From Candidatus Moraniibacteriota bacterium (GTDB lineage: Bacteria; Patescibacteriota; Minisyncoccia; Moranbacterales; UBA2206), in the NCBI GenBank assembly GCA_049297495.1, contig JBAQUL010000010.1, positions 12,881-76,880 on the forward strand: a stretch of DNA of 64,000 nt, in the 5' to 3' direction. Shown piece by piece: positions 5,270-39,337 of this stretch. Below the pieces are notes generated by a model. It worked only from the letters and a program-made list of their open reading frames with translations. It had not been told where the DNA came from and did no database searches. Within the stretch, counting starts at the first letter, position 1; the number at the start of each line of letters is the position of its first letter. A program made the position numbers and the translations under genes.

Positions 5270-7264
5270 TCATTTTTTCTTTTTCTTCTTTTCCTCCTTC
5301 TTTTTCTCTTTCTCTTCTTTCTTTTTCTGTTCTTCCCATTTCTTAAGTTCCTCTTCACTCAAAACTATTTTTTCATCAGAAGAAACTGGCTTATAGCCAA
5401 CAAAGCTATCATCCGGATAGCGAGACAACACCGCATCCACAAAACTGCGCCAAATCGGAGCTGCCACGAAGACTCCATCTGAACCTGCTTTCATCGGATG
5501 CGAATCATTATTTCCCGCCCAAACTCCAACTGCAATTGATGGCGTATAGCCCACCGTCCATGCATCACGAAACTCCTGAGATGTTCCCGTCTTTGCCGCA
5601 ACAACTCTTCCAGGAATATAAAGGGGACTCCTTGGACCGAATATTGCCGAGCGAGCATCATTATCAGAGAGAACTGAATTTATTTTTCTGGCCACCTCAA
5701 TATCAATCACTTGTTCACCCTGGACTTTATTCAAATATGACTCATTATTATTATCAATAATTTCCAATATTGAATGCGACTGAAATCTTTTTCCCTCAGT
5801 AGCAAATACTGAAAAAGCGCTTACCATATCAACGAGTTTCACTTCGGCGCCACCTATTGCCATCGAAAGTCCATAGCGGTTCCGATCATTTAGCGTTGTG
5901 ATCCCAAGTCGATGTGCCATATTAATTGCGCTATCAATGCCAACAAGTGAAAGCGTTTTTATAGCTGGAATATTAAGTGACATTGAAAGTGTTTTTCTCA
6001 TCGGAAGTACGCCGTGAAATTTGCCATCATAGTTTTGTGGGATATAGCTTATCCCTCCACCATCCGGTCCAAAATTTGTCGGCTCATCAGCTATGAGTGT
6101 TTCTGGCTGATAGCCCTTTTCAAAAGCCGTCGCATAGACAATCGGCTTGAAGGATGATCCCGGTTGACGCAAGCGCAGTGCCACATTCACCTGCCCATCT
6201 ATCGTTGTATCAAAATAGTCTCGACTCCCCACCATCGCTAGCACATCACCGCTTTTTGGTTCAATTGCAACAAGTGCAGCATTGCTTGCGCCACGACTGA
6301 GATTCTTTAGTCCGCCATCTGCTACAACTTTTTCGCCAACTTTTTGTAACTCAAAATCTAGCGTTGTTATTATTTTTAATCCTCCTTTTTCTAAAAAGTC
6401 CCTACCATATTTAGTCTCCAACTGCTCAATTACGTTAAATACGAAATGGGGCGCCAAGATAGATTCTCGAAAAGGTTCCACTTTAGCCAAAATATTTATT
6501 TTCTTTGCTTTATCGATTTCAGAAGAGTCAGCTAGCCCGAGAGAATTCATCCTATCTAAAATACTTTGATGACGAGAATTTAATTTCTCCACATTATTCC
6601 CATATGGAGAATAATAAGTTGGAGCCTTAGGAAGCGCTGCCAAGAAAACGGCTTCGTCTAAACTTAGATTTTTTGCCTCTTTTCCAAAAAAAACTTCTGC
6701 TGCCGCTTGGACACCATAGGCATTGGAACCATATGGCACCTGATTAAGATAACGATCCAAAATCTGATCTTTGGTAAAATTCTTTTCAATCTTAAGCGCA
6801 ATTAATGTCTCCATGAATTTCCTGCGCAGCGTTTTCTCCCGCGACAGATAAACATTGCGAGCTAACTGTTGAGTAATCGTTGACCCTCCCTGGGAAATAT
6901 CTCCGTTTTTAACATTAACTTTCATTGCGCGCAAAATCGATAAAAAATCAACACCAAAATGACTATAAAAATTTTTATCCTCCGTTGCCACAGTCGCAAT
7001 CCGCATCACATCAGGAATTTCATCATGTGCCAAAACCTTACGATTTTCCTCGCCATGAATTTCATAGAGCACGATTCTTCCACTCCGGTCATAGATAATT
7101 GATGTTTGCGGAGGCCGAAAACTGGAGATATCAGCCACACTCGGCGTGTGATTTTTATAAATAAAAAAAGTGGCAATTGCTGTACCCAGCAATACCATAA
7201 ACAAAGCACCAAAAATGCCTAAAATAACTTCTTTAAAATAATATCCAAATGTGTGCTTTTTCAT
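5270..7264 (-). CDS. mrcA: Class A penicillin-binding protein (transglycosylase + transpeptidase), PBP1A-like
   Basis: Glycosyltransferase-51 motifs (EDKNFYSHFGVD, GGSTITQQLARN) and a transpeptidase SxxK/KTGT region (AAKTGTSQ). N-terminal TM helix and a K/E-rich C-tail. Confidence 0.85.
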   Translation of the reverse strand: MKKHTFGYYFKEVILGIFGALFMVLLGTAIATFFIYKNHTPSVADISSFRPPQTSIIYDRSGRIVLYEIHGEENRKVLAHDEIPDVMRIATVATEDKNFYSHFGVDFLSILRAMKVNVKNGDISQGGSTITQQLARNVYLSREKTLRRKFMETLIALKIEKNFTKDQILDRYLNQVPYGSNAYGVQAAAEVFFGKEAKNLSLDEAVFLAALPKAPTYYSPYGNNVEKLNSRHQSILDRMNSLGLADSSEIDKAKKINILAKVEPFRESILAPHFVFNVIEQLETKYGRDFLEKGGLKIITTLDFELQKVGEKVVADGGLKNLSRGASNAALVAIEPKSGDVLAMVGSRDYFDTTIDGQVNVALRLRQPGSSFKPIVYATAFEKGYQPETLIADEPTNFGPDGGGISYIPQNYDGKFHGVLPMRKTLSMSLNIPAIKTLSLVGIDSAINMAHRLGITTLNDRNRYGLSMAIGGAEVKLVDMVSAFSVFATEGKRFQSHSILEIIDNNNESYLNKVQGEQVIDIEVARKINSVLSDNDARSAIFGPRSPLYIPGRVVAAKTGTSQEFRDAWTVGYTPSIAVGVWAGNNDSHPMKAGSDGVFVAAPIWRSFVDAVLSRYPDDSFVGYKPVSSDEKIVLSEEELKKWEEQKKKEEKEKKKEEKKKKKK

Positions 7265-7890: not shown

Positions 7891-7962
7891 TGCCGAAGGG
7901 CAGAGTTGAACTGCCGACGCAAGGATTTTCAGTCCTTCGCTCTACCGCTGAGCTACTTCGGC
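7891..7962 (-). tRNA. tRNA-Phe(GAA)
   Basis: Acceptor GCCGAAG/CTTCGGC, anticodon loop CTGAAAA, T-arm GGCAG-TTCAACT-CTGCC. Confidence 0.8.
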
Positions 7963-8023
7963 TTTTTCTATCAGCCTAAAATATAAAGTCTTGCATTTTC
8001 ATGTCGCATATTACATGATTTTG

Positions 8024-8096
8024 TGGACCCTATAGGACTCGAACCTATAACCCCCTCGGTGTAAACGAGGTGCTCTAGCCATTGAGCTAAGGATCC
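8024..8096 (-). tRNA. tRNA-Val(TAC)
   Basis: Acceptor GGATCCT/AGGGTCC, anticodon stem CCTCG/CGAGG with loop TTTACAC, T-arm ATAGG-TTCGAGT-CCTAT. Confidence 0.8.
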
Positions 8097-8759: not shown

Positions 8760-9719
8760 TTATCCCCTTTCCTCTGTTTCGTCAAGGAAATGGCCGAAAT
8801 CTAGAAAATCTTGCGGAAGTGGAGAATTGAACTCATAGCCGTTACCAAAAAGCACAAACTTGATTGACTGCGCATGAAGCAATTGCCTCCTGGCACTATC
8901 AAGACGGTCTATACCTCGCAAAAAGTATTTTTTATCCCCTACGATTGGATGACCAATTGATGTCAAATGCACTCGAATTTGATGCATCCGTCCGGTTTTG
9001 GGTGAAAGTTCCATGAGGGCATATTCATCCCCCAGGGTCCCTAGAGTTCGAAATCCAGTTTCAGCGTCACGAATTTTTGTCCTTGTCTTATGCCCAGCCA
9101 CCACCTGCCGTCTATAATCAGCTGAACGTGCCAAAGCCTTCTTAATCACACCCTCAGCCGGAACGGGCACGCCATACACAATCGCTTGATATTTTTTTTC
9201 AATTTCTTTGTCCTGAAACTGCCTCTTCAACTCTTCAAAAGTTGTCATATTTCTTGCAATCACGATCACACCACTAGTGTCCTTATCTAACCGATGCACA
9301 ATCCCCGGTCGCAACTTTCCTTCCTTCGTACCATCACAAACAGTTTCAGTTTCTGGAAAACTTGCCACTAAATAATTAACCAGAGTATCTTCTTTCCGTG
9401 TATCATCAGGGTGAACCTGCATACCAGCTGGTTTATCAATCACAATAATATTTTCATCGGAAAAAATTATTGGCAATTCCTTTTTAACTTTTGGCAATAT
9501 CACTTTCTCCTCGCTAAATTTAAAATCGAAAGTGATTTCATCATTATTTTTCAAAATATAACCCGACTTCACTTTTTCTTTGTTTACTAAAATTCTCTCT
9601 GCCTTAATTTGTCGAGAAATTTCACTGCGTGTAATTTTCCCATCAAAAAGAATCCCACTACTGAGGAATTTGTCCAATCGCTCACCTGAACTGTCTTTTG
9701 TAATAATTATTTTTTGCAT
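8760..9719 (-). CDS. rluD: RluA-family 23S rRNA pseudouridine synthase (RluD/RluC-like) with N-terminal S4 domain
   Basis: HRLDKDTSGVIVIARN catalytic motif, VIDKPAGMQVHP, and GRMHQIRVHL at the C-terminus. Confidence 0.8.
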   Translation of the reverse strand: MQKIIITKDSSGERLDKFLSSGILFDGKITRSEISRQIKAERILVNKEKVKSGYILKNNDEITFDFKFSEEKVILPKVKKELPIIFSDENIIVIDKPAGMQVHPDDTRKEDTLVNYLVASFPETETVCDGTKEGKLRPGIVHRLDKDTSGVIVIARNMTTFEELKRQFQDKEIEKKYQAIVYGVPVPAEGVIKKALARSADYRRQVVAGHKTRTKIRDAETGFRTLGTLGDEYALMELSPKTGRMHQIRVHLTSIGHPIVGDKKYFLRGIDRLDSARRQLLHAQSIKFVLFGNGYEFNSPLPQDFLDFGHFLDETEERG

Positions 9720-10063: not shown

Positions 10064-10357
10064 TTATTCCAAAAGCGCTTTGAGTCTGCGCACCTCTTCT
10101 TTCAGTGCCCCATCATTACCATACTCCCCATGATGCCGCGTATTCTCGCCATAAGTTTCTTTTTTCACATCGAGATGAATGTTAATTAACATATCCATTC
10201 CGGTCACCTTGACATACATATGAAACCTGGGGTAACCGGCCGCGGCCATCGGGCGCACAAAACTCATTTCATCACCTTCGTGCCTTTGAAAAGTATATCC
10301 CAGCCGGCGCAAATTATTCACCGGATTACCTTCGACATTTTTGACTTCGATTTGCAT
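10064..10357 (-). CDS. Hypothetical small protein (97 aa)
   Basis: Clean ORF with ATG start between a tRNA and folD. No recognisable motif. Confidence 0.4.
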   Translation of the reverse strand: MQIEVKNVEGNPVNNLRRLGYTFQRHEGDEMSFVRPMAAAGYPRFHMYVKVTGMDMLINIHLDVKKETYGENTRHHGEYGNDGALKEEVRRLKALLE

Positions 10358-11218: not shown

Positions 11219-11776
11219 TTATTGTTTAAAAATTTCAGGATACTGTAATGCCGCTCTCAGTATATTAGCGACGGAATCGGCCACCCAAACATCTCCATCT
11301 CTCACCATCTCCAAGGCTTTTTGCGGGGATACTTTAATTATTTCAATCTCCTCTGTCTCCTCTAGGTTTTGCTCCGAATTAAATTCCAAATCCTTAGCCA
11401 AGTAACAATACGTCACGTGAGTTGTCTTAGTCGGGTTGTTAGCAGTTTTGCCAAGAAAAATTAGCTTATCAATAGTCGTCTTTATGCCAACCTCTTCCTC
11501 GAGTTCCGCTATCGCTGATTCTTCCAAAGTTTTCCCTTTCTGCTGAAAACCAGCTGGGAGTTCAATTAATATTTCACCCAAAGCGTGTTTATATTGTTTC
11601 ACGAAAACTATCTCATTTTTCGCTGTTATCGGCAAAACCATCGCAACATTTCCCATAGGGGAAATAAAATAATCATCAACAATCTTTCCGTCAGGCAACT
11701 CGACGGTGTGCCGCAAAACTGGAAACCACTTACTCGGAGAGACGTCACTTTCCTTAATTATTTTCCATTTTCTCAT
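11219..11776 (-). CDS. NUDIX hydrolase (ADP-ribose pyrophosphatase-like)
   Basis: Nudix box GKTLEESAIAELEEEVGI (GX5EX7REUXEEXGU). Confidence 0.75.
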   Translation of the reverse strand: MRKWKIIKESDVSPSKWFPVLRHTVELPDGKIVDDYFISPMGNVAMVLPITAKNEIVFVKQYKHALGEILIELPAGFQQKGKTLEESAIAELEEEVGIKTTIDKLIFLGKTANNPTKTTHVTYCYLAKDLEFNSEQNLEETEEIEIIKVSPQKALEMVRDGDVWVADSVANILRAALQYPEIFKQ

Positions 11777-11897
11777 AGTTCTTTATTTTAAAAGTCTTAA
11801 GCTAAAATAAACAACAACCTGGTTACTTTTAATTAATTATAGCACACAAAAAAACTGCCAAAAATTGGCAGTTTTTCAGCTAAGCTCTTTTGAATTT

Positions 11898-12443
11898 TTA
11901 TGGATTAGCCACTTTGGCAGCTGGATTGCCCTGACAAAGCTTATTTCCCTTGTCCATATCGGTTAGTTTTTCACAATATCTCTGACATTTTTTCACTGAT
12001 CCAGTGACAGAACAGAAAGTTTTTACTTTCCCTTCCAAGAACCTTATCTCAGAGTCATCTATGAAATAATCATCTGAACTGATTTTATGTGGCGCATTAG
12101 CTGAGTATAATCTGCTAGCCCGTGAACGTCTTAAGCTTTCCTCCATCGCAGCATTACTCCGTTTAATGCTTTCATTCCTCCGCTTATAGCTATCATTCAG
12201 AGTTTGTTGATTCCGCCTACTAAGCTCATCCATAGATCTTTTCAGGGATTCTTGGTTTAGTCTATTTTGTCTGTCAATATTATCTCTCCAATAGCTACTA
12301 CTGTTGTAACTAGGAGTATAGGTGCGTGTATAGCTGGGAGTATAGGTGCGCGAGTAACTACTACCATATGCCGAACCATAGGCATGGGATGCAACTGGAA
12401 GAAAAAAGACTAGCGCCAAAAACAATAAGGTGAGTTTTTTCAT
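11898..12443 (-). CDS. Secreted hypothetical protein with Tyr/Ser/Thr-rich tandem repeats and a 4-Cys C-terminal module
   Basis: Signal peptide MKKLTLLFLALVFFLPVASHA; repeats YSRTYTPSYTRTYTPSY; C-terminal CSVTGSVKKCQRYCEK...CQGN. Confidence 0.5.
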   Translation of the reverse strand: MKKLTLLFLALVFFLPVASHAYGSAYGSSYSRTYTPSYTRTYTPSYNSSSYWRDNIDRQNRLNQESLKRSMDELSRRNQQTLNDSYKRRNESIKRSNAAMEESLRRSRASRLYSANAPHKISSDDYFIDDSEIRFLEGKVKTFCSVTGSVKKCQRYCEKLTDMDKGNKLCQGNPAAKVANP

Positions 12444-12610: not shown

Positions 12611-13789
12611 ATGCCCACCCCCCTCCCTGATCTCATTCGCCCCCAAAATCTCACTGATTTTTTTGGCCAAGAAAAACTCGTTGGAAAAAATTCCTATCTT
12701 TTTCGCGCCATTGAAAGTGACGCCATCCCGTCGATGATTCTTTGGGGCCCACCCGGATCAGGAAAAACCACGCTCGCCCACATCATCGCCTCTGCCACCA
12801 AATCAGAATTCTTAAAAATCAGCGCGGTCTCCTCTGGCAAAAAAATACTTTTGGAAATCATAGCCAAAGCTCAAGAGAATAAACTGCAAAATAAAAAAAC
12901 AATTCTTTTTATCGACGAGATTCATCGCTGGAACAAAGCCCAGCAAGATGCCCTTTTGCCTTATGTTGAAAACGGCACCATCACGCTCATCGGCGCAACC
13001 ACCGAAAATCCCAGCTTCGAAGTCAATTCCGCCCTTGTTTCTCGCACTCGTGTTTTTGTTTTGGAAAAACTGACCCCGACTGATTTGGAAAAAATTATCA
13101 CGCGCGCCTTGGATAAAATCAAAACTACAAAAAAAATTAAAATAGATTCTGACACCATAAAACTACTCACCAATCTTTCTAATGGCGACGCGCGCATGGC
13201 GCTAAATACCCTAGAAGCTTGCACTAACCAAACCAAAAATATCACTCCAGAACTAGTGAAGGAGGTTTTACAAAAATCCCACCTACTCTATGACAAATCC
13301 GGCGAAGAACATTACAATATTATTTCTGCCCTGCACAAATCAATGCGCGGAGGAAATCCTGACGCTTCCGTCTATTGGCTAGCGCGAATGATTGAAGGCG
13401 GTGAAGACCCGCTTTTCATCGCCCGGCGCCTCGTGCGTTTTGCCAGCGAAGATATCGGCCTCGCCAACAACACCGCCCTGCTTCTCGCTAATGCTGTTTT
13501 TGATGCCTGCCACAAATTAGGTCATCCTGAATGTAATGTCCACCTCACCCAATGTGTAATCTATCTCGCTAAATCCAAAAAGGACATCACGACCTACGCC
13601 TCCTACGCCAAAGCCAAAAAAGACGTGGAAAAATTCGGCAATCTCCCTGTCCCATTACATCTCCGAAATGCACCAACAAAACTAATGAAAGAATTGGGTT
13701 ATAGCAAAGGCTACAAATATACTCCACTGGAAGATAGTCGTGAACAGAGTTATTTGCCAGAAGAATTGGGAGATTCTAAATATTTGTGA
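12611..13789 (+). CDS. rarA: Replication-associated recombination protein A (AAA+ ATPase RarA/MgsA)
   Basis: Walker A GPPGSGKTT, Walker B ILFIDEIHR, C-terminal MgsA helical domain (DASVYWLARM...GEDP). Confidence 0.85.
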   Translation: MPTPLPDLIRPQNLTDFFGQEKLVGKNSYLFRAIESDAIPSMILWGPPGSGKTTLAHIIASATKSEFLKISAVSSGKKILLEIIAKAQENKLQNKKTILFIDEIHRWNKAQQDALLPYVENGTITLIGATTENPSFEVNSALVSRTRVFVLEKLTPTDLEKIITRALDKIKTTKKIKIDSDTIKLLTNLSNGDARMALNTLEACTNQTKNITPELVKEVLQKSHLLYDKSGEEHYNIISALHKSMRGGNPDASVYWLARMIEGGEDPLFIARRLVRFASEDIGLANNTALLLANAVFDACHKLGHPECNVHLTQCVIYLAKSKKDITTYASYAKAKKDVEKFGNLPVPLHLRNAPTKLMKELGYSKGYKYTPLEDSREQSYLPEELGDSKYL

Positions 13790-13906
13790 AAATCTTTTAA
13801 AATCTTGCAAAATAAGCCCCATTCATTTAAACTAACAATGAACAAATATGACTTTGCTTCATAAATTTTTAAAATTAATAGCCGTAATATTAGCTTAAAT
13901 CAAAGT

Positions 13907-14839
13907 ATGGACACAAAAAATAACTCAATAAAATATTCCCATTTGTTTTTTCTTTTCATAACCTTTATCCTCGGAATAGTTGCTACACTATTATTATCAA
14001 ATATTCTAGAGAAGGAAATAATTCAATTTTCCACCATTGGATTAATAGGTTTTGTTTTATCAATTATTCTCGGTGGAGCAAGTATTGTTTTAGCTATAAA
14101 TGCGATTCATCTCGGCAAATCTTCTGAAGCAGCAATTATCGAAAGAAATGATGAAAGCATTAAGATACAAAACCAAATATTCCAAAAAACAACTGAAGCC
14201 TTAAGCAGAATAGAATCTTCAACCGGAGTCACAGAAAAACGGATAGAGGATATTATAGCTGGACGAGCTGGTGCAATTGCCGAAAGCCTTTCTCTTAAGG
14301 ATATTCGAAATCCTCGTGGAATAGAGGATAAGTTAAGAAAATCTCTCACTGAGAAAATATCACCAGAAGAAAGAGAAGCAAGAAACAATATAATTAAAGA
14401 GCGGGTTGCTGCCGGAAAGCGATATGAAGATATCCATAAATCATTGCTTATTTCACTTTCAAATGAACCAAAAATAAAATCTATAAAGTTATGTGAACAT
14501 GGATCATTCGGAGGAGAAGGGATTGATTTATTTGATGGTGTTTTCATGGTGAACAATTTGAAAATAGGCGTAAGCATTTTTAGCGATGAGCCACTTCTGG
14601 AAAACATGTTTGTCTCTGGATTTAAAGAATTTTTAACAAGAATAGCACAAGAAATAGCAAATAAAACAGTAAACCACTTCTTTTATCTTTCAAATAAAGA
14701 ATCCTCCACGTCAGCCACACTAAGAGAGGAACTTAAAAACACAACCGAGTTACTGCGGAGTGACTTGCAGAATAGAATACACATAGAGACCGGAACAGAT
14801 GCTGAATTAATCAGAATAATATTAGATAAGATAAAATAA
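13907..14839 (+). CDS. Hypothetical membrane protein (two N-terminal TM helices + coiled-coil-like soluble part)
   Basis: Hydrophobic N-terminus; no catalytic motifs seen. Confidence 0.45.
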   Translation: MDTKNNSIKYSHLFFLFITFILGIVATLLLSNILEKEIIQFSTIGLIGFVLSIILGGASIVLAINAIHLGKSSEAAIIERNDESIKIQNQIFQKTTEALSRIESSTGVTEKRIEDIIAGRAGAIAESLSLKDIRNPRGIEDKLRKSLTEKISPEEREARNNIIKERVAAGKRYEDIHKSLLISLSNEPKIKSIKLCEHGSFGGEGIDLFDGVFMVNNLKIGVSIFSDEPLLENMFVSGFKEFLTRIAQEIANKTVNHFFYLSNKESSTSATLREELKNTTELLRSDLQNRIHIETGTDAELIRIILDKIK

Positions 14840-15007
14840 TCCGCAGTCAGCTTAAGTATCTAACTTGAACCCCTTGTTGGTTCAAGTCTCCGACTTGAAT
14901 CTTCTATTTCTGCTCAGCTAGCTATAATTGTAAAGTTGAGCAAGAATAAAATGGTTCCCTCCAAAGGCGGGCCGGCAGATCAGGAGACACTGAACCGACA
15001 ATAAACA

Positions 15008-15040
15008 TAGCAGGAGCAGGGTTGTACCCTGCTCCTTTTA
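15008..15040 (+). terminator. Rho-independent terminator (GGAGCAGGGTTGTACCCTGCTCC + TTTT)
   Basis: Perfect 9-bp GC-rich stem followed by a T-run. Lies about 170 bp downstream of the 13907-14839 gene, after a possible -10 at 14925. Confidence 0.4.
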
Positions 15041-15113
15041 GTTTACTAACTTAGCTTTATTTGTAAAACAAAAGGTTCAAGCTACAAGCTTGAACCTGCC
15101 TAAAAATAAAATT

Positions 15114-15225
15114 TTCCTAAAACAACCCATCAATCTCCCTATTTTCCAAAACATCCACCTTGGACACCACGGAAATTCTTGGCAACCCAAACATTGCCAT
15201 AGCTCCTATTGAAAATCGCTTGCAA
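15114..15225 (-). pseudogene. Diverged remnant copy of the 3' end of fhs (formate--tetrahydrofolate ligase C-terminus)
   Basis: Minus-strand translation ...GAMAMFGLPRISVVSKVDVLENREIDGLF* aligns with the true Fhs C-terminus ...[30 protein letters not shown] (ORF 16552-18222). DNA similarity CCTAAAACAACCC[A/C]TC[A/G]ATCTCCC. Confidence 0.55.
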
Positions 15226-15343
15226 AAACCTGCTTATTTAATATCATAATATTTTTGTCGTTACTTTATTGACATTTTTAGTTCTTTTTGTGGCTATTTA
15301 GCGGTATTTTTAGGCATTGATTAATATTCATTCGAGAATTACT

Positions 15344-15372
15344 TGACAAGTTTTTAATACTACTCTATACTA
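15344..15372 (+). promoter_or_regulatory. Sigma-70-like promoter TTGACA-N17-TATACT, about 350 bp upstream of TrmB paralog 2
   Basis: Exact -35 TTGACA at 15344-15349 with 17-nt spacer and TATACT at 15367-15372. Confidence 0.4.
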
Positions 15373-15469
15373 GATTTAATTAGTACATTTTAAACATTAT
15401 AAGCCAGCGAGGAGCGGCTGAAGTTACATAGAATTTGATTGGGATGGGCGAAATATTATTTCTCCCGAT

Positions 15470-15660
15470 TCATTTCTTTATTGATAAACTTTATCAATAT
15501 CCCCTCTCATTTTCTTTCCTTTCTCTCTTTTTTCTCACCTTTCCGTTTTTCTCTCTTCTTTTCTCCCCCTTCACCTTTTCACCTTCTTCTTCACCACTCT
15601 CTTCTCTTCTCTTCTCTTCTCTTCTCTTCTTCCAACCCTCTCGCTCGCTTTCTCTCTCAC
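15470..15660. repeat. Polypyrimidine (CT-rich) tract of about 190 bp containing a (TCTTC)7 microsatellite at about 15597-15633, inside the putative 5' leader of TrmB paralog 2
   Basis: Seen directly. The ORFs 15435-15761 and 15439-15672 are translations of this low-complexity tract. Confidence 0.8.
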
Positions 15661-15723
15661 ACCCTGGAATAAATCATCGCATTTATTCCTGTTTTCTTTT
15701 TTACAAACAGTTTATTTATACAT

Positions 15724-16470
15724 ATGGACACAACAATCCTAAAAAAAATTGGCCTCAATGATAAAGAAGTCAAAATATATTTAAAACTACTCGAGTATGG
15801 AGCAATCTCCGTTCGCGGACTGGCAGAGATCTCCGAACTAAACCGCGGGACAACCTATGATGTCCTAAAGCGTTTGCAAGAAATTGGTCTTGTTAGCTAT
15901 TATTATCAAGAAAAAAAACAGCGCTTCGTCGCAGAAGAACCTGAAAAATTATTGGAAATCCTCAAAAACAGAGAGCTTGAAATTAAAAACGTTAAAAGTG
16001 GTATCCTAGATATTATTCCAGAGCTAAAATCAATCCAGGATAAAAAAGATCTAAGGCCAGTTTCCAAATTATATGATAACCGCGCAGGGATAAAAACAAT
16101 CCTGAATGATTTGCTTTCTTCGATGCATTCCCTACCAGAAGATGAAAGAGAATACCATATATATTCCTCTACCGAAGCAAGCGCAGATATTCACAAGGCC
16201 TATCCAACATTCACGAAAGAAAGAGTTAAGAGAAAAATTCGCGTGAAATCGATCTCCCTAGCTGAAGGGGGCAACTTGCATGGGCTAGATGACCGCCGCT
16301 GGCTAGGTACTAACAAAAATTCTGCAACGTTTATTTTGATTTACGCCGGGAAATGCGCTTTTATTTCTCGCGATTCGGAAGGCAATCCTGTAGGCGTGCT
16401 AATTGAAAATCAAATGATTTATGAAACTCAAAAGATGATTTTTCAAAAGCTTTGGGAATATTTGAAATAA
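15724..16470 (+). CDS. TrmB-family HTH transcriptional regulator (paralog 2 of 3)
   Basis: N-terminal winged-HTH (LGLNDKEVKIYLKLLEYGAISVRGLAEISELNRGTTYDVLKRLQEIGLV), about 250 aa. Confidence 0.7.
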   Translation: MDTTILKKIGLNDKEVKIYLKLLEYGAISVRGLAEISELNRGTTYDVLKRLQEIGLVSYYYQEKKQRFVAEEPEKLLEILKNRELEIKNVKSGILDIIPELKSIQDKKDLRPVSKLYDNRAGIKTILNDLLSSMHSLPEDEREYHIYSSTEASADIHKAYPTFTKERVKRKIRVKSISLAEGGNLHGLDDRRWLGTNKNSATFILIYAGKCAFISRDSEGNPVGVLIENQMIYETQKMIFQKLWEYLK

Positions 16471-16499
16471 TCTACCAACATTCGCACTATCAAAAATAT

Positions 16500-16532
16500 A
16501 ATTAAAAGAGGCGCAACCACTCGCGCCTCTTT
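16500..16532. terminator. Bidirectional terminator hairpin (AAAAGAGGCGCAACCACTCGCGCCTCTTTT) between the convergent TrmB gene and fhs
   Basis: GC stem GAGGCGC/GCGCCTC flanked by A- and T-runs. Confidence 0.5.
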
Positions 16533-16551
16533 TAATATAAAAATCCTTCTC

Positions 16552-18222
16552 CTAAAACAACCCCTCGATCTCCCCATTTTTACTCACATCAATTTTCTCC
16601 GCCGCGGGAATTTTTGGCAGTCCCGGCATGGTCATAATTTCTCCGGCGATCGCCACAATAAACCCAGCGCCGTTGGAGATTCTCAGTTCTCGAATATTGA
16701 GCGTGAAACCTTTCGGTCGTCCCAAAAGCTTTGGATCATCGGAAAAAGAATACTGGGTTTTGGCAATACAAATTGGCAATTTATCTAATTTATCTTTTTC
16801 CAATTTTTCCATCTGTTTTTGAGCCTTAGTACTGAACTCCACACTTTTCGCGCCATATATTTTTTGCGCAATCGCTGTAATCTTCACTTTGATATGCGAT
16901 TGCTCGGAATATAAAACTTTAAAATTCGCCTTTTTCTTGGCCAGAGTTTCCAGAACAACTTTTGCCAAATCCTCTCCACCAACTCCACCTTTTTCCCAAA
17001 CATGCGACAACGCATATGACGCACCTAGTTTTTTCACCATCTGTTCGAGCAATTTTAATTCTTTTTGCGTGTCAGATGGAAAAACATTCACGGCGACCAC
17101 CACCGGCACGCCAAATTTTTTCAAATTCTCCACATGCTTTTCCAAGTTAGCAAAACCTTTTTTCAGGTGATTGAGGCTTGGCATTACCAGCGTTTCTTTT
17201 TCCATTCCACCGGAATATTTAAGCGCGCGCACTGTTGCCACAATCACAACTGCATCGGGCTTCAGTCCTGCGATACGACATTTGATGTTAAAAAATTTCT
17301 CCGCGCCAAGATCCGCGCCGAAACCCGCCTCTGTCACAAGATAATCACCGAGCTTCAGTCCATAACGTGTTGCTAAAATACTATTACAACCATGCGCAAT
17401 ATTAGCAAATGGTCCGCCGTGAATGATGGCAGGCGTGTGTTCCAATGTTTGCACAAGATTTGGTTTTAGTGCGTCTTTGAGAATCGCCGTCAAAGCTCCA
17501 ACCATTTTTAGTTCTCTGGCATAAACCGGCTCACCAGAAAAAGCATACGCAACTAAAATATTTCCCAAGCGTTTTTTGAGATCAGTCAAATTTTCACTAA
17601 GGCACAGAATCGCCATAATCTCCGATGCGACCGTGATGTTAAAACTTTCTTCTCTTGGCACACCTTGTGATTTTCCTCCCAATCCCACAACCGTGTTTCG
17701 CAAAGTTCGATCATTCAAATCCATTGCCCGCTTCCAAAGAATCTGGCGTGCGTCTATTTGTAGCTCATTGCCTTGAAAAATATGGTTGTCAATAATTGCC
17801 GAGAGTAAATTATTAGCCGTTGTGATGGCATGCAAATCGCCCGTAAAATGCAAGTTGATCTCATCCATCGGCATCACTTGGGAATAGCCACCACCGGCCG
17901 CGCCACCTTTCACACCCATACACGGTCCAAGTGATGGCTCGCGCAGAGCAAGCATCGTTTTTTTGCCCAAACGGTTCATCGCCATAGCGAGGCCAATCGA
18001 AGTCGTCGTTTTTCCTTCCCCAGCCGGCGTCGGACTAATCGCCGTGACTAAAATTAATTTACCGTCCTTTTGATTTTTAATCTTCTCCCACAGCACTGGT
18101 TTTAGTTTAGCCTTATGCTCCCCATATAATTCTAAATCGCTTTTCGCAAGACCGATTTTCTCCGCCACATTTTCAATTGGCTCCATTTTTGAAACTTTCG
18201 CAATTTGGATATCTGTTTTCAT
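16552..18222 (-). CDS. fhs: Formate--tetrahydrofolate ligase
   Basis: [18 protein letters not shown]-loop and overall FTHFS pattern over 556 aa. Confidence 0.9.
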
Positions 18223-18292
18223 AAAGTTATTTTTAAAAATTTATTACTTACTATAAATAAAGAAAATCTACGGTCAGTTCGTCAAGCTCAAG

Positions 18293-18473
18293 ATATCCTC
18301 CTCGCCCCTCGGGAGAGCCTGCCTGCCGGTAGGCAGGGATGTCCGAAGGACAGGTGAGAGGAAGGGTAATATTAATTAGTATAAGCGTTATATCATAGGG
18401 AATAAAAAAATTTCAAAAGCCCTTTCCCTCATCCGGCCTTCGGCCACCTTTTCCCGGAGGGCGAAGGGGATAT
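18293..18473. mobile_element. MITE-like composite palindromic element, copy 1 (CCCCTCGGGAGAGCCTGCCTGCCGGTAGGCAGGGATGTCCGAAGGACAGGTGAG ... CCTCATCCGGCCTTCGGCCACC...CCGGAGGGCGAAGGGG)
   Basis: About 180 bp intergenic element whose two arms are imperfect inverted repeats. Two further full copies lie at 27617-27800 and 36531-36690. Confidence 0.55.
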
Positions 18474-18484
18474 AAATAAAAATT

Positions 18485-20344
18485 TCACTCCTTTATAAAT
18501 TCCGAAATTGCTTCCAATATCCCTTCCTCATCCAACCCCACCTCCGCCAAAATTTCTCCGCGCATGCCATGAGAAAGAAACTCGTCCGGCAATCCTAGGT
18601 TTTTAATTCTAACATTCAGCCCGGCTTTCGCAAAAAATTCGTTCACGGCACTGCCTGCTCCACCCATAACTACATTATCCTCAACTGTTACAAAATATTG
18701 ATGCGTCTTGGCTAATTCCCGCAATAGTTCCTCATCAAGCGGCTTGATAAATCGCATATCCACAAGTGTTGCATCAATAGCCTCCGCCGCTTTCTTGCTC
18801 CTGCCAAGCATTGTCCCAAAAGCTAAAATTGCGACGTCTTTTCCCTCTCTCGCAACCTTAGCCTTGCCAATTTCAATCGGCTGACTCTTTTTCCCGCCAC
18901 ATCCGCAAAGATTAGCGCCCTTAGGATAACGCACCGCTGCCGGCCCGGGGTAATTGTAACCAGCTTCCAACATCGCATAACATTCATGTTCATCTGAAGG
19001 CGCCATGACAATGAGATTTGGAATGATACGCAGAAATGACAAATCAAAACTGCCTGCGTGTGTTGCACCATCTGGACCGACAATTCCAGCGCGATCAATT
19101 ACAATCAGAACATCCAGATTAGGCAGAGCGATATCATGGATAAGTTGATCATAGCCACGCTGCAAAAATGAGGAGTAAATCGCCACAATCGGCTTCTTGC
19201 CTTGAAGGGCTAGTCCAGCTGCAAAAGTCAAAGCGTGTTGTTCAGCAATCCCCACGTCATGATAACGCTTAGGAAATTTTTCACTAAAATTAATCAGGCC
19301 AGATCCACTACCCATCGCCGGAGTAACAGCATGCAAGCTTAATTCTTTTTTGGCTTTTTCGCAAATCCAATGGGCGAAAACGTCAGTATAGGCGATATTT
19401 TTAACTGAGCCGTTTTTCTGTCCAGTTATCGGATCAAAAGGCGTAACCGCATGCAAAGAAAAATTATCTTTTTCCGCCGGAGCATATCCCTTGCCTTTTT
19501 TCGTAATCACGTGCAAAAAGCGTGGACCCTTTAATTTTTTCAAATTTTCCAAAACCTCCAAGAGTGTTTCCGTATCATGCCCGTCAATCGGTCCATAATA
19601 TTTAAACCCCAATTCTTCAAACATTGTTCCTGGTGTAATCACACCTCTTGCCTGAATTCCTGCGCGATGGACCAATTTTTGAACAGTCGGCATATTTCTC
19701 AGAGCCTCCAAACCCTTATCGCGCAAATTCACATAAGCAGGAGATGAAATAAGCCTTGTTAAATACTTTTCCATTCCGCCCACATTAGGTGAAATCGACA
19801 TCTTATTGTCATTCAGTACGACTAAAATATCTGCCTTGATGTCCCCCGCATGATTGAGCGCTTCAAACGCCATCCCACCACCAAGTGCTCCATCACCAAT
19901 CAGAGCAATAACGCAAGGCGCATTTTTTTTATTTCTATTCGCGACTGCCATTCCTGTTGCCAAACTAATTGAGGTGCTTGTATGTCCCGCGTTTGAAGTG
20001 TCATATTCGCTCTCCTCTCTTCTGGGAAAAGGCGCAAGACCTCCTTTTTTTCGAATTGTAGCAAGTCGACTCTTCCGCCCTGTAAGAATCTTATGTGCGT
20101 ACGCCTGATGTCCAACGTCCCACAAAAGCAAGTCTCTGGGCGCATCAAAAATATAGTGCAATGCTACAGTCAGTTCAATCACGCCAAGATTCGATCCGAG
20201 ATGCCCACCACTCTGTGCCACGCTTTCAATCAGAAAACTGCGAATTTCTTCACAAAGTTTCGGCAACTTTTCTCTAGGAATTTTTTTCAAATCCCGCGGA
20301 AAAGCAACTAAGTCTAATATTTTTTTCACCTTATTCTTTGTCAT
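18485..20344 (-). CDS. dxs: 1-deoxy-D-xylulose-5-phosphate synthase
   Basis: GGHLGSNLGVIELTVALHYIFD...LWDVGHQAYAHKILTGR TPP-binding pattern; 619 aa. Confidence 0.9.
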   Translation of the reverse strand: MTKNKVKKILDLVAFPRDLKKIPREKLPKLCEEIRSFLIESVAQSGGHLGSNLGVIELTVALHYIFDAPRDLLLWDVGHQAYAHKILTGRKSRLATIRKKGGLAPFPRREESEYDTSNAGHTSTSISLATGMAVANRNKKNAPCVIALIGDGALGGGMAFEALNHAGDIKADILVVLNDNKMSISPNVGGMEKYLTRLISSPAYVNLRDKGLEALRNMPTVQKLVHRAGIQARGVITPGTMFEELGFKYYGPIDGHDTETLLEVLENLKKLKGPRFLHVITKKGKGYAPAEKDNFSLHAVTPFDPITGQKNGSVKNIAYTDVFAHWICEKAKKELSLHAVTPAMGSGSGLINFSEKFPKRYHDVGIAEQHALTFAAGLALQGKKPIVAIYSSFLQRGYDQLIHDIALPNLDVLIVIDRAGIVGPDGATHAGSFDLSFLRIIPNLIVMAPSDEHECYAMLEAGYNYPGPAAVRYPKGANLCGCGGKKSQPIEIGKAKVAREGKDVAILAFGTMLGRSKKAAEAIDATLVDMRFIKPLDEELLRELAKTHQYFVTVEDNVVMGGAGSAVNEFFAKAGLNVRIKNLGLPDEFLSHGMRGEILAEVGLDEEGILEAISEFIKE

Positions 20345-20387: not shown

Positions 20388-21050
20388 TCACACAATTTCG
20401 CTCAAAACCTTTTTCAAACCTTCCACTACCTTCCTATTCTTCCGCAATGCGGAAATTGCCACTGTAATATCCTCGGTTTTCTGGGAAAGACTAAGTTGCT
20501 TAGAAAGGAATATTCGCACTGATTTTTCATCAGGTTTTTTTTCAATATACTTGGCCAAAACAGCATACCATAAAACAAATGTCGGTCGGTCTGCTTTGAT
20601 TTCCAAATTAACCAAAGGCGGATTTCGAAAATAGTTCGCTAATTTTTCCCAATTGTTATAGTAATCATACAGCAATTCATCTTCTAAAAACTTTGCAGGA
20701 TGCCCAAATAATTCGGTCGTCTTTTCTAACTTAAAGAAACCCTGCGCATTAAGAATTTCATCGCGCCGCATATCACAATAGAGATGAAATTTCCAACCAG
20801 CCTCAAAAGATGTCAGCCCAGAAAAATTCAGATCAAGCGGTTGAAATTTCAAATGCGTATCCTTTCTTTTGATGCTCGGCTCAATTCTTCTGATGTCCGG
20901 GAAAACCGAACCTAATAAAAACTCATCTCGATTAATCTTATGATTGCGGTTTATTTTTTCTTCATCTAAAAAATCTTTATCGGTCTTTCCGTTTTCAATC
21001 TTGTCGAAATATTTTTTTGCATAAACTATATGCGCGATTTGAGATGCCAT
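20388..21050 (-). CDS. Hypothetical protein (220 aa)
   Basis: Clean ORF with ATG start; conserved-looking His/Asp positions (GSVFPDIRR, FHLYCDMRRDE) but family not recognised. Confidence 0.45.
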   Translation of the reverse strand: MASQIAHIVYAKKYFDKIENGKTDKDFLDEEKINRNHKINRDEFLLGSVFPDIRRIEPSIKRKDTHLKFQPLDLNFSGLTSFEAGWKFHLYCDMRRDEILNAQGFFKLEKTTELFGHPAKFLEDELLYDYYNNWEKLANYFRNPPLVNLEIKADRPTFVLWYAVLAKYIEKKPDEKSVRIFLSKQLSLSQKTEDITVAISALRKNRKVVEGLKKVLSEIV

Positions 21051-27616: not shown

Positions 27617-27800
27617 CATCCCCTTCGCCCCTCGAGAGAAGCCTGCCTGCCGGTAGGCAGGGTGGTCGAAGGCCGGATGAGGGCAAGGGCTTTTGATAAA
27701 ATTATTACTATCCCACACAGAACATTTTCATATTTTGATATCACCCTTGCCCTCACCTGTCACGTGCTCGTGACATCCTCTCCCGAAGGGAGAAGAGGGT
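27617..27800. mobile_element. MITE-like composite palindromic element, copy 2 (overlaps the 3' end of the 27728-29776 ORF)
   Basis: CCCCTCGAGAGAAGCCTGCCTGCCGGTAGGCAGGGTGGTCGAAGGCCGGATGAGGGCAAGGG ... CCCTTGCCCTCACCTGTCACGTGCTCGTGACATCCTCTCCCGAAGGGAGAAGAGGG; same modules as copies 1 and 3. Confidence 0.55.
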
Positions 27801-36530: not shown

Positions 36531-36690
36531 AATATCCTCCTCTCCCCTCGGGAGAGGATGTCCGAAGGACAGGTGAGGGCAAGGGCTATAAAATCAAAGA
36601 TAGTCCGAATAAATTAATTCTGGCTTAATTTAACACTCTTACCCTCATCCGGCCTACGGCCACCTTCTCCCGAGGGGAGAAGGGAAAATA
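36531..36690. mobile_element. MITE-like composite palindromic element, copy 3
   Basis: ATATCCTCCTCTCCCCTCGGGAGAGGATGTCCGAAGGACAGGTGAGGGCAAGGG ... CCCTCATCCGGCCTACGGCCACCTTCTCCCGAGGGGAGAAGGG; arms are inverted repeats; located immediately upstream of a tRNA pair. Confidence 0.55.
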
Positions 36691-36699
36691 TAATAATTC

Positions 36700-38007: not shown

Positions 38008-38560
38008 TTTTCCTCTCCTTTTTTGATTTTCTCCGCAGTATAGCCTCTGACCAGTCCACACTATGCAAACCCAGACATTAGCTGATATTTAGTTTTCAAA
38101 CAACTGAGCTATCTAAGAGTCTAGATAAACTCTAGGAGAGACGGAAACTTTTCTGTCTCTCACTAGAATTTACGGTTCAATCTCATGTTCAGTTTGGTCA
38201 TCTCGTCTGTGGATTTCTCTTTTGCAATCAAATAGATAATATTTTTCTTTTTCTTTCTCCGCCTCTTCTTTGGAAGGAAAGTGCCAGAACTGGCTGAGAT
38301 ATTGTCTGGTTTTTTCCGACATAATTGGAACGTCTCCGACAACCATTCCATTATTCAGGATCATTTTCATAGTTTCTTGCTTAATGTTTAGTTCGTTAAG
38401 ATTTGGCTGAGCTTCTTTTTCCCCCGTTTTATCTTAACAACCTAGTATATACCAAAACCGCCCTGATGTCATATATGTCGACAAGGATATTTTTTGACTA
38501 ACTTATTGCTTTAGTATAGAATAATTATAGTTGTCTGATTTTCGGACATAATACTAAATA

Positions 38561-39337
38561 ATGCCAAATATGGACAATAAGTTATACAAAGTGCTGCTTA
38601 ATTTGGGACTTAGCGATAATGAAGCGCTGGTCTATTTGAGCGCGCTTTCTTTGGGCAAAACCACAATCCTGGCCATTTCCAAGGCCTCGGAAGTTAAAAG
38701 AACCACTGTTTATTCAGCAGTCGAATCATTGAAGCAATTGGGACTGATGAAGGTCGAGCAGATCGGCTGGAAAACCTTTTTTTCTGCGGAAAATCCGGAA
38801 AAACTGGAAAGGATAATGGATAATAAGAAAAAGGAACTTCAAGAATCGCTAGTTGATTTCAAGGCGCTCTACAGCGCTGACGGAGGGAGCAGTCTAATTA
38901 AATACTATGAAGGCGTGGAAGCGGTGAAAAATATCCATCTAGATCTGCTGGATGAGGTGAAATTCGGAGAGGATTATTGGGTGATTAGCGATTCCGCTAA
39001 ATGGATGTCGGAAGACCAAAGATTTTTTGAAAACTTCGTGGAAAAACGGGCGCAAAAAAAGCTCAATAACCGCCTTTTGCTCCAAGATTCAGAAATTGCC
39101 CGAAAATATAAACAAAACGAAGCAATATATAATTTGCAGATAAAGATTTTTCCACAAGATATGCAGCTCTCGGCTTCCATCACAATTACGCCAAATAAAA
39201 TCCTCATCCACCAAACCACCCCGCCAGTTATTGCAATGGTAATTGAAAACAAAAACATTATCCGCTTGCACAGGGAACTTTTTGAGTTTATGTGGAAAAC
39301 AATCGCGGTAGATCAAGAACTTACGCATTTGAATTAA
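38561..39337 (+). CDS. TrmB-family HTH transcriptional regulator (paralog 3 of 3)
   Basis: N-terminal winged-HTH (LGLSDNEALVYLSALSLGKTTILAISKASEVKRTTVYSAVESLKQLGLM), about 258 aa. Confidence 0.7.
   Translation: MPNMDNKLYKVLLNLGLSDNEALVYLSALSLGKTTILAISKASEVKRTTVYSAVESLKQLGLMKVEQIGWKTFFSAENPEKLERIMDNKKKELQESLVDFKALYSADGGSSLIKYYEGVEAVKNIHLDLLDEVKFGEDYWVISDSAKWMSEDQRFFENFVEKRAQKKLNNRLLLQDSEIARKYKQNEAIYNLQIKIFPQDMQLSASITITPNKILIHQTTPPVIAMVIENKNIIRLHRELFEFMWKTIAVDQELTHLN

Follow-up and report, generated by a model that had tools for sequence, protein, structure and literature searches.

The 64,000-nt window analysed here (the whole stretch of Candidatus Moraniibacteriota DNA, from whose first letter all coordinates without a further label are counted) contains an intact fhs gene, encoding formate-tetrahydrofolate ligase, and a second, displaced copy of the last 38 codons of that gene, hereafter referred to as the remnant. 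The remnant lies 1.3 kb from the true end of fhs, at position 16552, and the DNA in between holds a complete unit for a regulator of the TrmB family, TrmB2. On the outer side of the remnant are p310, which encodes a hypothetical protein, and rarA, which is convergent with fhs. The positions of these features are listed in Table 1; contigs and loci of related strains are denoted by L numbers.

Table 1. Features of the fhs-rarA region in the window, and counterparts of the TrmB2 leader in related loci.
Feature	Position	Strand	Details
rarA/mgsA	12611-13789	+	Conserved far-side boundary of the variable spot; Pfam MgsA_C and AAA
p310	13907-14839	+	Strain-specific cargo, hypothetical protein; hydrophobic N-terminal region; terminator 15012-15036
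Terminator hairpin and T run just 3′ of the remnant stop	15073-15097	-	-15.7 kcal/mol, z=-2.8
fhs 3′ remnant	15117-15233	-	Codons 519-556 and stop codon TAG (15117-15119); non-functional pseudogene fragment
Upstream part of the TrmB2 unit	15234-15342	+	Left edge (15234-15236) adjoins the remnant
TrmB2 promoter, sigma-70 type	15343-15371	+	TTGACA-17-TATACT; 11/12 consensus positions
TrmB2 leader, conserved	15372-15723	+	~350 nt; CU-rich tract, (TCTTC)n, hairpin
TrmB2, TrmB-family helix-turn-helix regulator	15724-16470	+	248 aa; Pfam PF01978, E=1.7e-13
Bidirectional terminator common to TrmB2 and fhs	16501-16536		Inverted repeat; -23.5 kcal/mol, z=-5.8
fhs, intact, formate-tetrahydrofolate ligase	16552-18222	-	556 aa; Pfam FTHFS over residues 1-556, E=1.2e-269; NCBIfam equivalog above cutoff
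Tract within fhs 100% identical to L176	16879-17421		543 nt; flanks 74-87%
Leader counterparts in relatives	L170 5750-6000; L173 5660-6000; L176 6630-7000; L181 6595-7000		

The minus strand at 15120-15233 translates as AGFCKRFSIGAMAMFGLPRISVVSKVDVLENREIDGLF and is preceded by an in-frame TAA at 15234-15236. The translation aligns with residues 519-556 of Fhs without a gap, with 18 of the 38 residues identical. The first-pass annotation had reported homology to the Fhs C-terminus at 15114-15225, and over the stretch that it quoted the identity is 15/27. The homology stands, although the fragment is 11 codons longer than was proposed and occupies 15117-15233. At the nucleotide level the remnant is identical at 73/117 positions to its functional counterpart, the last 117 nt of the intact gene (16552-16668), and blastn returned 74% identity over 73 nt (E=3e-7). 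When the entire 64-kb window was searched with Fhs by tblastn, the remnant was matched with E=9e-5 and the match terminated exactly at the stop codon. This significant, collinear C-terminal similarity, viewed in an alignment with 80 Fhs C-termini, places the remnant in the Fhs family (Pfam PF01268). The longest identical stretch of the remnant and the true fhs end, GGGTTGTTTTAGGA, comprises 14 nt and runs across the stop codon; a GLF-stop motif is conserved in all Fhs sequences. A search of 54 long open reading frames (ORFs) against the window identified the remnant as its sole gene-fragment duplicate. The same arrangement recurs in independent assemblies, namely L001-L003 (two sequencing runs), L176 and four protein accessions from metagenome-assembled genomes labelled Moraniibacteriota, and is therefore no assembly artefact. 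The conservation of the Fhs C-terminus across bacteria makes short matches easier to obtain, but a chance likeness to this motif, or an artefact, can be set aside for practical purposes: the similarity at both the protein and the DNA level is far above chance, the match is in frame and gapless and ends at the stop, and another strain, assembled independently, has a homologous remnant at this very junction. The remnant is thus confirmed as a fragment of fhs. The hairpin that follows its stop codon looks like a former fhs terminator; it is strain-specific, being without a counterpart in L176. The motif GGTTCAAGCT, common to the hairpins near the remnant, was tested as a repeat family and its count was no higher than chance.

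The homologous remnant at exactly the same junction occurs in L176, a 37.5-kb contig from the same strain as contig L168, with an fhs gene 91% identical to that of the window. The order in L176 is fhs, the same terminator, TrmB2, the leader and the remnant (6375-6491), which translates as FDLCRRFLLGAMMI, an internal stop, and GLPRVSAVEKIDVSGKGDIDSLL followed by the terminal stop. The remnants of the window and L176 are identical at 76/117 positions (64%), compared with 93-100% for the adjoining leader, TrmB2 and the 3′ half of fhs. In the 27 nt upstream of codon 519, which are unrelated to fhs, 21 positions are identical in the two strains. The shared junction and the similar 27-nt flank point to a single ancestral joint. 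On the other side, the window and L176 cease to be homologous at 15113, directly beyond the remnant stop codon. The cargo beyond this point is unrelated, consisting of p310 in the window and of six other ORFs, including another TrmB paralogue, in L176.

A third lineage, L181-L184, in which fhs lies at a four-fold-site distance of ~0.5, also has the TrmB2 unit next to fhs. Neither tblastn nor gapped local alignment, controlled by shuffling, revealed a significant trace of a decayed remnant in L181. Homology of L181/L183 to the window begins at 15236, while homology to L176 resumes at most 2-3 nt from the 5′ edge of the remnant; L181 has 28 unrelated nt at the position where L176 has a 725-nt block made up of a 91-aa ORF (c91), a spacer and the remnant. 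The regulator unit therefore adjoins fhs without the fragment in one lineage, and is accompanied by the fragment in two.

The sequence of the remnant bears the marks of decay. Compared with a consensus derived from eight own-clade fhs alleles, the window remnant shows 16, 12 and 13 differences at codon positions 1, 2 and 3, respectively, and 23 GC-to-AT versus 12 AT-to-GC changes. Residues that are invariant in 80 Fhs sequences are altered, MPGLP to MFGLP and PAA to SVV. The even spread over the codon positions, the changed invariants, the in-frame stop directly upstream and the internal stop in L176 all reveal a loss of coding constraint, the hallmark of a pseudogene. The remnant is an unconstrained, neutrally decaying piece of pseudogene without a function of its own. 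It matches the fhs genes of its own genus-level clade at 72-78 of the 117 nt, as against 62-63 for L004, L005 and L006. As the remnant is closest to own-clade fhs and has lost coding constraint, its divergence is the product of decay and not of an origin in a distant lineage; the remnant arose within its own genus-level clade. The suggestion of the first-pass annotation that the divergence signified a foreign lineage, and hence horizontal acquisition, is not borne out by these data.

The promoter, the CT-rich leader with TCTTC repeats, the TrmB ORF and the terminator that had been annotated between the two fhs ends are all present. Both promoter hexamers are identical in the orthologous loci L170, L173, L176 and L181, and the bidirectional terminator is kept in L168, L176 and L181. 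The winged-helix model PF01978 matches residues 6-73 of TrmB2 with 50.6 bits against a gathering cutoff of 25.6, while the NCBIfam equivalog models for TrmBL2 and TrmB gave 19-21 bits against cutoffs of 500-530. TrmB2 is not equivalent to the archaeal sugar-sensing TrmB/TrmBL proteins, with which it has the DNA-binding domain alone in common. Orthologues with 60-84% identity are widespread in Patescibacteria, and those with 83% identity in other Moraniibacteria head a glmS operon, in the order TrmB2-glmS or TrmB2-cofD-220aa-glmS. These native loci contain the same promoter and ~350-nt leader as the copy at fhs, including the CU-rich tract and the pre-start hairpin with its U run. The native loci L170 and L173 remain homologous as far back as ~15250, only a few bases short of the remnant, so that the DNA between the two fhs ends is one complete transcription unit. 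This promoter-leader-gene unit appears to have become detached from glmS and is no exotic cassette. Searches for glmS and cofD in the window and the loci of its close relatives found neither gene.

Within the window leader the repeat consists of 6.6 perfect period-5 copies of TCTTC at 15598-15630 and is length-polymorphic among strains: L170 lacks it, whereas the window has 7 copies, L176 has ~11 and L181 has at least 16. A terminator-like hairpin (15666-15689) and a U run are located just before the TrmB2 ATG. The leader is 93-97% identical to that of L176, compared with 64% for the adjacent remnant. Several sequence blocks, two or three hairpins and the terminator-like hairpin are conserved in both the fhs-adjacent copies and those of the native glmS operons, and the CU-rich tract ranges from ~40 to >250 nt among strains; most contigs of the relatives break at this tract. 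The conserved sequence features suggest that the leader may be an undescribed attenuator, or another cis-regulatory RNA, of the glmS pathway in bacteria of the candidate phyla radiation (CPR). An Rfam search of the region and of the orthologous loci assigned no family to the remnant or the leader; the sole match was a group I intron (RF00028, 80-82 bits) in L170 (4882-5157) and L173 (4442-4689), where it adjoins a tRNA-like sequence a short distance 5′ of the native TrmB2-glmS loci. A pair formed by a second, different TrmB-family regulator and a divergent 66-aa ORF is found inside the variable spot of L176 (3962-5142) and L181 (4599-5779). The 66-aa ORF shares 68% identity with a small ORF that precedes the third TrmB paralogue of the window (both within 38173-39337). 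TrmB-type regulator modules are recurrent cargo. The first-pass annotation had raised the question of whether other TrmB paralogues are flanked by gene-end duplicates; none was found beside those at 332-1093 and 38561-39337.

Relatives of the window were reached via a protein search and exact-protein contig look-ups, which provided three lineages that carry the TrmB2 unit and six that lack it, with no parental alleles among them; a scan of metagenome contigs with Fhs returned nothing closer than 68% identity. In L005 and L006, which are more distant Moraniibacteria/Parcubacteria (Fhs 75-77% identical), fhs is followed directly by folD. In the genus-level clade, with Fhs 88-96% identical, fhs and rarA lie next to each other in convergent orientation, and the content of the gap between them differs in nearly every strain. 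The gap is empty in L167, where the two stop codons overlap, and holds a DUF4116 protein in L166, a 67-aa ORF and a GNAT acetyltransferase in L165, a kinase-like protein and a 77-aa ORF in L164, a DUF1653 protein in L004, and p310, the remnant and the TrmB2 unit in the window. Over L004, L164-L167, L176, L181 and the window there are eight different gap contents, and between-strain homology stops at the two stop codons, those of fhs and rarA. Six strains have fhs with other cargo or none (L167 being empty and five having unrelated cargo) and lack the regulator unit. The unit is thus an insertion relative to these relatives, and an intact-versus-inserted polymorphism exists. The first-pass annotation, which had described an insertion that left a homologue of the true fhs 3′ end displaced at its outer edge, was essentially right in this respect. 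No fhs fragment was detected in the six other alleles of the gap. A 94-nt segment (L164 ~7940-8030, L165 ~8813-8906) is 95% identical between the otherwise unrelated cargo regions of these two strains, and may be a small common repeat.

No integrase, transposase or recombinase was found among the ORFs between 8.2 and 22.8 kb, as judged by Pfam scan or homologue match and leaving out a 97-aa ORF (10064-10357). In the same interval, the 181-aa ORF at 11898-12443 matches no family. The GC content falls to ~0.35 over 13650-16500. The fhs-rarA gap behaves like a small hotspot of horizontal transfer without mobility genes.

Identity between the window and L176 changes sharply along the region, from 64% in the remnant to 93-98% over 15400-16880, 74-87% in the 5′ half of fhs and 75-89% in dxs. 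The 543-nt perfect tract within fhs marks a very recent recombination exchange. Four-fold-site distances between the two strains are 0.13 for TrmB2, 0.26 for fhs, 0.36 for rarA, 0.52 for the 220-aa gene (20388-21050) and 0.90 for dxs. The groupings conflict, as the 220-aa gene joins L176 with L182, and fhs joins L176 with the window. The region is a recombination mosaic, and the dating of the event from four-fold-site distances was dropped as a decisive argument for this reason. The remnants themselves display a comparable unevenness. Substitutions common to both number 18/117 and are concentrated in the 5′ third, with 13, 4 and 1 in successive 39-nt segments. Of the 28 positions in the 3′ two-thirds at which the remnants differ, 13 show states that are also polymorphic among functional fhs alleles; 5-9 such sites would be expected under random decay (P 0.0005-0.06, depending on the transition bias assumed). 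These data suggest that functional fhs ends have served as templates for rewriting the outer part of the remnant.

The homology, the decay, the allele series, the common junction, the mosaic and the lack of recombinase genes can all be read directly at the locus. From them we infer the order of events, the nature of the joint and the direction of transfer. We propose, with a probability of roughly 0.55, that the remnant is the scar left when an allele carrying the regulator unit recombined with one lacking it, by a homologous crossover in fhs together with an illegitimate joint at codon 519. According to this model a complete TrmB2 unit would have become cargo directly after the fhs stop codon, a state that would survive in L181/L183. 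A unit-bearing allele would subsequently have recombined with a unit-free allele through a crossover inside fhs and the illegitimate joint. The product would have retained a single intact fhs and the TrmB2 unit, with a displaced fhs end of 117 nt beside the older cargo. The displaced end would then have drifted with an AT bias and, while still fhs-like, probably acted as a homology arm in later exchanges. Pairing of the displaced end with real fhs ends in such exchanges would explain why the cargo differs from exactly the remnant stop outward. The junctions display the asymmetry that the model predicts, one being homologous and the other non-homologous: on the right, fhs is continuous with recombination tracts, and on the left homology stops abruptly at codon 519 in two strains.

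Several observations weigh against this reconstruction. No microhomology is readable at the joint, the 5′ third of the remnant being heavily decayed, and neither presumed parent has been seen, in that no allele has p310 or c91 directly beside an intact fhs. In experiments, homology-facilitated illegitimate recombination usually pairs insertion with deletion, whereas a 117-nt duplication is present here. A deletion could also have turned a remnant-bearing state into the remnant-free state of L181; the 725-nt difference between L176 and L181 has AAAAATC-like strings close to each of its ends, and the 28 unmatched nt of L181 are not assignable. The lineages with the TrmB2 unit that were sampled number three, and since the region is a recombination mosaic with conflicting groupings the order of events is unreadable from a single tree. 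Finally, the allelic signature in the outer remnant weakens to P=0.02-0.06 under strong transition bias.

The adjacency of the unit to fhs and the remnant might alternatively stem from one and the same event, in which the TrmB2 unit, together with a replacement fhs end, was inserted at codon 519 of the resident gene in the common ancestor of all unit-bearing strains, the remnant and c91 being lost later in L181/L183. Such a history is possible, but we regard it as rather unlikely. It has the merit that a single event generates both features, and the 18/117 sites at which both remnants differ from fhs are compatible with an origin before the L181 split, as are the AAAAATC-like strings that flank the segment absent from L181 with its loss by deletion. 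However, the insert must already have carried an fhs 3′ end on the TrmB2 unit, and an allele with the unit next to fhs must then have existed before; otherwise a target duplication of at least 117 bp has to be assumed, which is no usual outcome. In addition, the deletion in L181 would have to end at most 2-3 nt from the original joint and leave 28 unrelated nt, and changes common to both copies are few in the 3′ two-thirds of the remnant (5/78). It is improbable that the remnant is instead the leftover of a second full-length fhs, whether a tandem paralogue or foreign, that was nearly all deleted in a process unrelated to the arrival of TrmB2. A 3′-terminal fragment with its own terminator (15073-15097) is a conceivable product of such a deletion, but fhs-like sequence is lacking upstream of codon 519 in either strain, the 5′ edge of the fragment falls precisely where the TrmB2 unit begins in both, no relative with two fhs genes was found, and the closest matches to the fragment are fhs genes of its own clade.

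The first-pass annotation had further suggested that the fhs 3′ end serves as an attachment or recombination site. In the form of a site-specific integrative element, with the TrmB2 unit as the remains of an island that brought a replacement gene end and the two fhs ends as left and right sites, this proposal is highly improbable. Direct repeats of a gene 3′ end around inserted DNA, with the gene left intact as at attL/attR islands, are the classic island signature; the 14-nt longest identical stretch spans the stop codon, and the spot is variable among strains. In contrast to such islands, there is no integrase or other recombinase in or near the insert (ORFs 8.2-22.8 kb), which consists of one housekeeping-type regulator unit of 1.3 kb. 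Moreover, the six other cargo alleles at the spot lack the repeat, L181/L183 carry the unit without it, and no core extends beyond coding conservation, the identity around the stop codon being explained by the conservation of GLF-stop across Fhs.

An extension of the proposed recombination scar is that the remnant and the true fhs end function as direct homology arms, which would make the TrmB2 unit a recombinase-free cassette movable by homologous recombination. We put this forward only tentatively and consider it doubtful. If true, the unit would spread by transformation among co-existing Moraniibacteria into chromosomes that have fhs beside the variable spot, and each transfer would rewrite the outer remnant from the fhs end of the recipient. 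Rewriting of this kind would explain the cargo boundary at the remnant stop, the restriction of old common substitutions to the 5′ third, and the allele-like differences between the two remnants.

The proposed event resembles homology-facilitated illegitimate recombination, which combines one homologous end with one illegitimate joint that displays 3-10 bp of microhomology, and which is known from natural transformation of Streptococcus pneumoniae, Acinetobacter baylyi and Pseudomonas stutzeri (PMC3240628). The likeness extends to the homologous anchor (fhs), the non-homologous joint (codon 519 abutting the TrmB2 unit), the lack of a recombinase gene, the involvement of related strains and the mosaic surroundings. 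The differences are the duplication of the 117-nt anchor end, in place of the usual insertion and deletion, and the fact that the process is reconstructed here from comparative data alone. Saccharibacteria, another group of Patescibacteria, are naturally competent (PMC10633639; preprint PMC10187176), and by analogy DNA uptake in Moraniibacteria is plausible. Illegitimate recombination of this kind has also been proposed as the source of orphan genes and of gene 3′ ends that have been displaced (PMC5361080). The rhs, contact-dependent inhibition (CDI) and type VI secretion effector loci are described as undergoing C-terminal displacement that leaves orphaned 3′ ends behind (PMC5361080, citing Jackson et al. 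2009, PMC2935791). As in rhs and CDI loci, the incoming module at fhs brings a new functional 3′ end and the earlier end is pushed downstream as an orphan fragment. Unlike those loci, the gene concerned encodes a housekeeping enzyme and not a polymorphic toxin, with neither an immunity gene nor a selective rationale, and the displaced end is 38 codons long, plainly decaying and single rather than part of an array.

Many hotspots of transfer are devoid of mobile elements, with recombination evident in the core genes at their borders (Oliveira et al. 2017, PMC5635113). The spot described here is similar in that fhs and rarA enclose a different gene set in nearly every strain, mobility genes are lacking and homologous recombination has occurred in the flanks. 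It differs in being very small (0-3.4 kb) and in residing in an ultrasmall CPR genome; the nine alleles are too few for formal hotspot statistics. The event is of a known kind, a recombination scar or gene-end displacement at a hotspot bounded by core genes, and is unusual in being well resolved, in a CPR genome and in involving a piece of a housekeeping gene. Current concepts are unchanged, and the hotspot and illegitimate-recombination patterns of cultivated bacteria are extended to Moraniibacteria. The locus documents clearly how the order of genes in ultrasmall, uncultivated CPR bacteria is altered in nature by recombination between co-existing strains at a small hotspot between two core genes, without mobile-element machinery. 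The decaying fragment also provides a local, selection-free gauge of divergence (64%) beside genes that are 93-100% identical, thereby exposing recent recombination tracts. In addition, the locus indicates that a conserved regulator can leave its operon and persist as a self-contained unit.

The strain-specific cargo gene p310 is not present at this locus in any relative. Its nearest homologue is 64% identical, and homologues of ~40% identity are scattered over phyla, including those from Vibrio, Shewanella, Teredinibacter, Pyrinomonadaceae and Syntrophales. No family assignment reaches threshold in Pfam, NCBIfam or PADLOC. Sub-threshold matches to membrane proteins are confined to the N-terminal part, comprising an EamA-like transporter model at residues 9-78 (18.4 bits against a cutoff of 28.2) and PycTM (E=0.0073); the C-terminal domain is uncharacterised. 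The distribution of p310 is typical of an accessory gene, possibly one related to defence.

The neighbourhood of fhs is repeatedly rearranged. The rarA stop codon is the point at which between-strain homology ends on the far side of the spot, and the gap between rarA and folD (11219-12443 in the window) is also variable. It holds a NUDIX gene and the gene for a 181-aa low-complexity protein in the window and L176, NUDIX alone in L166, and a 96-aa GIY-YIG protein in L164, L165 and L181; in L167 it is empty. On the other side of fhs, dxs (18485-20344 in the window) lies between the 220-aa gene and fhs only in the genus-level clade, L005 and L006 being without dxs at this position. L182 has an extra 360-aa gene between fhs and dxs. 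A family of GC-rich, palindrome-bearing repeats, similar to repetitive extragenic palindromes (REP) and exemplified by CCTCGCCCCTCGGGAGAGCCTGCCTGCCGGTAGGCAGGG, occurs in the window at 18290-18475, 27618-27780 and 36532-36696, in L168 at 1964-2164 and in L181 at 227-380. Through a REP-like repeat, contig L168 links the tRNA-Leu side (window 10053) to the promoter side of fhs (window 18358). This junction implies either an inversion of the segment from fhs to the 97-aa ORF at 10064-10357 or an assembly chimera; in L176, which is from the same strain as L168, the order is as in the window.

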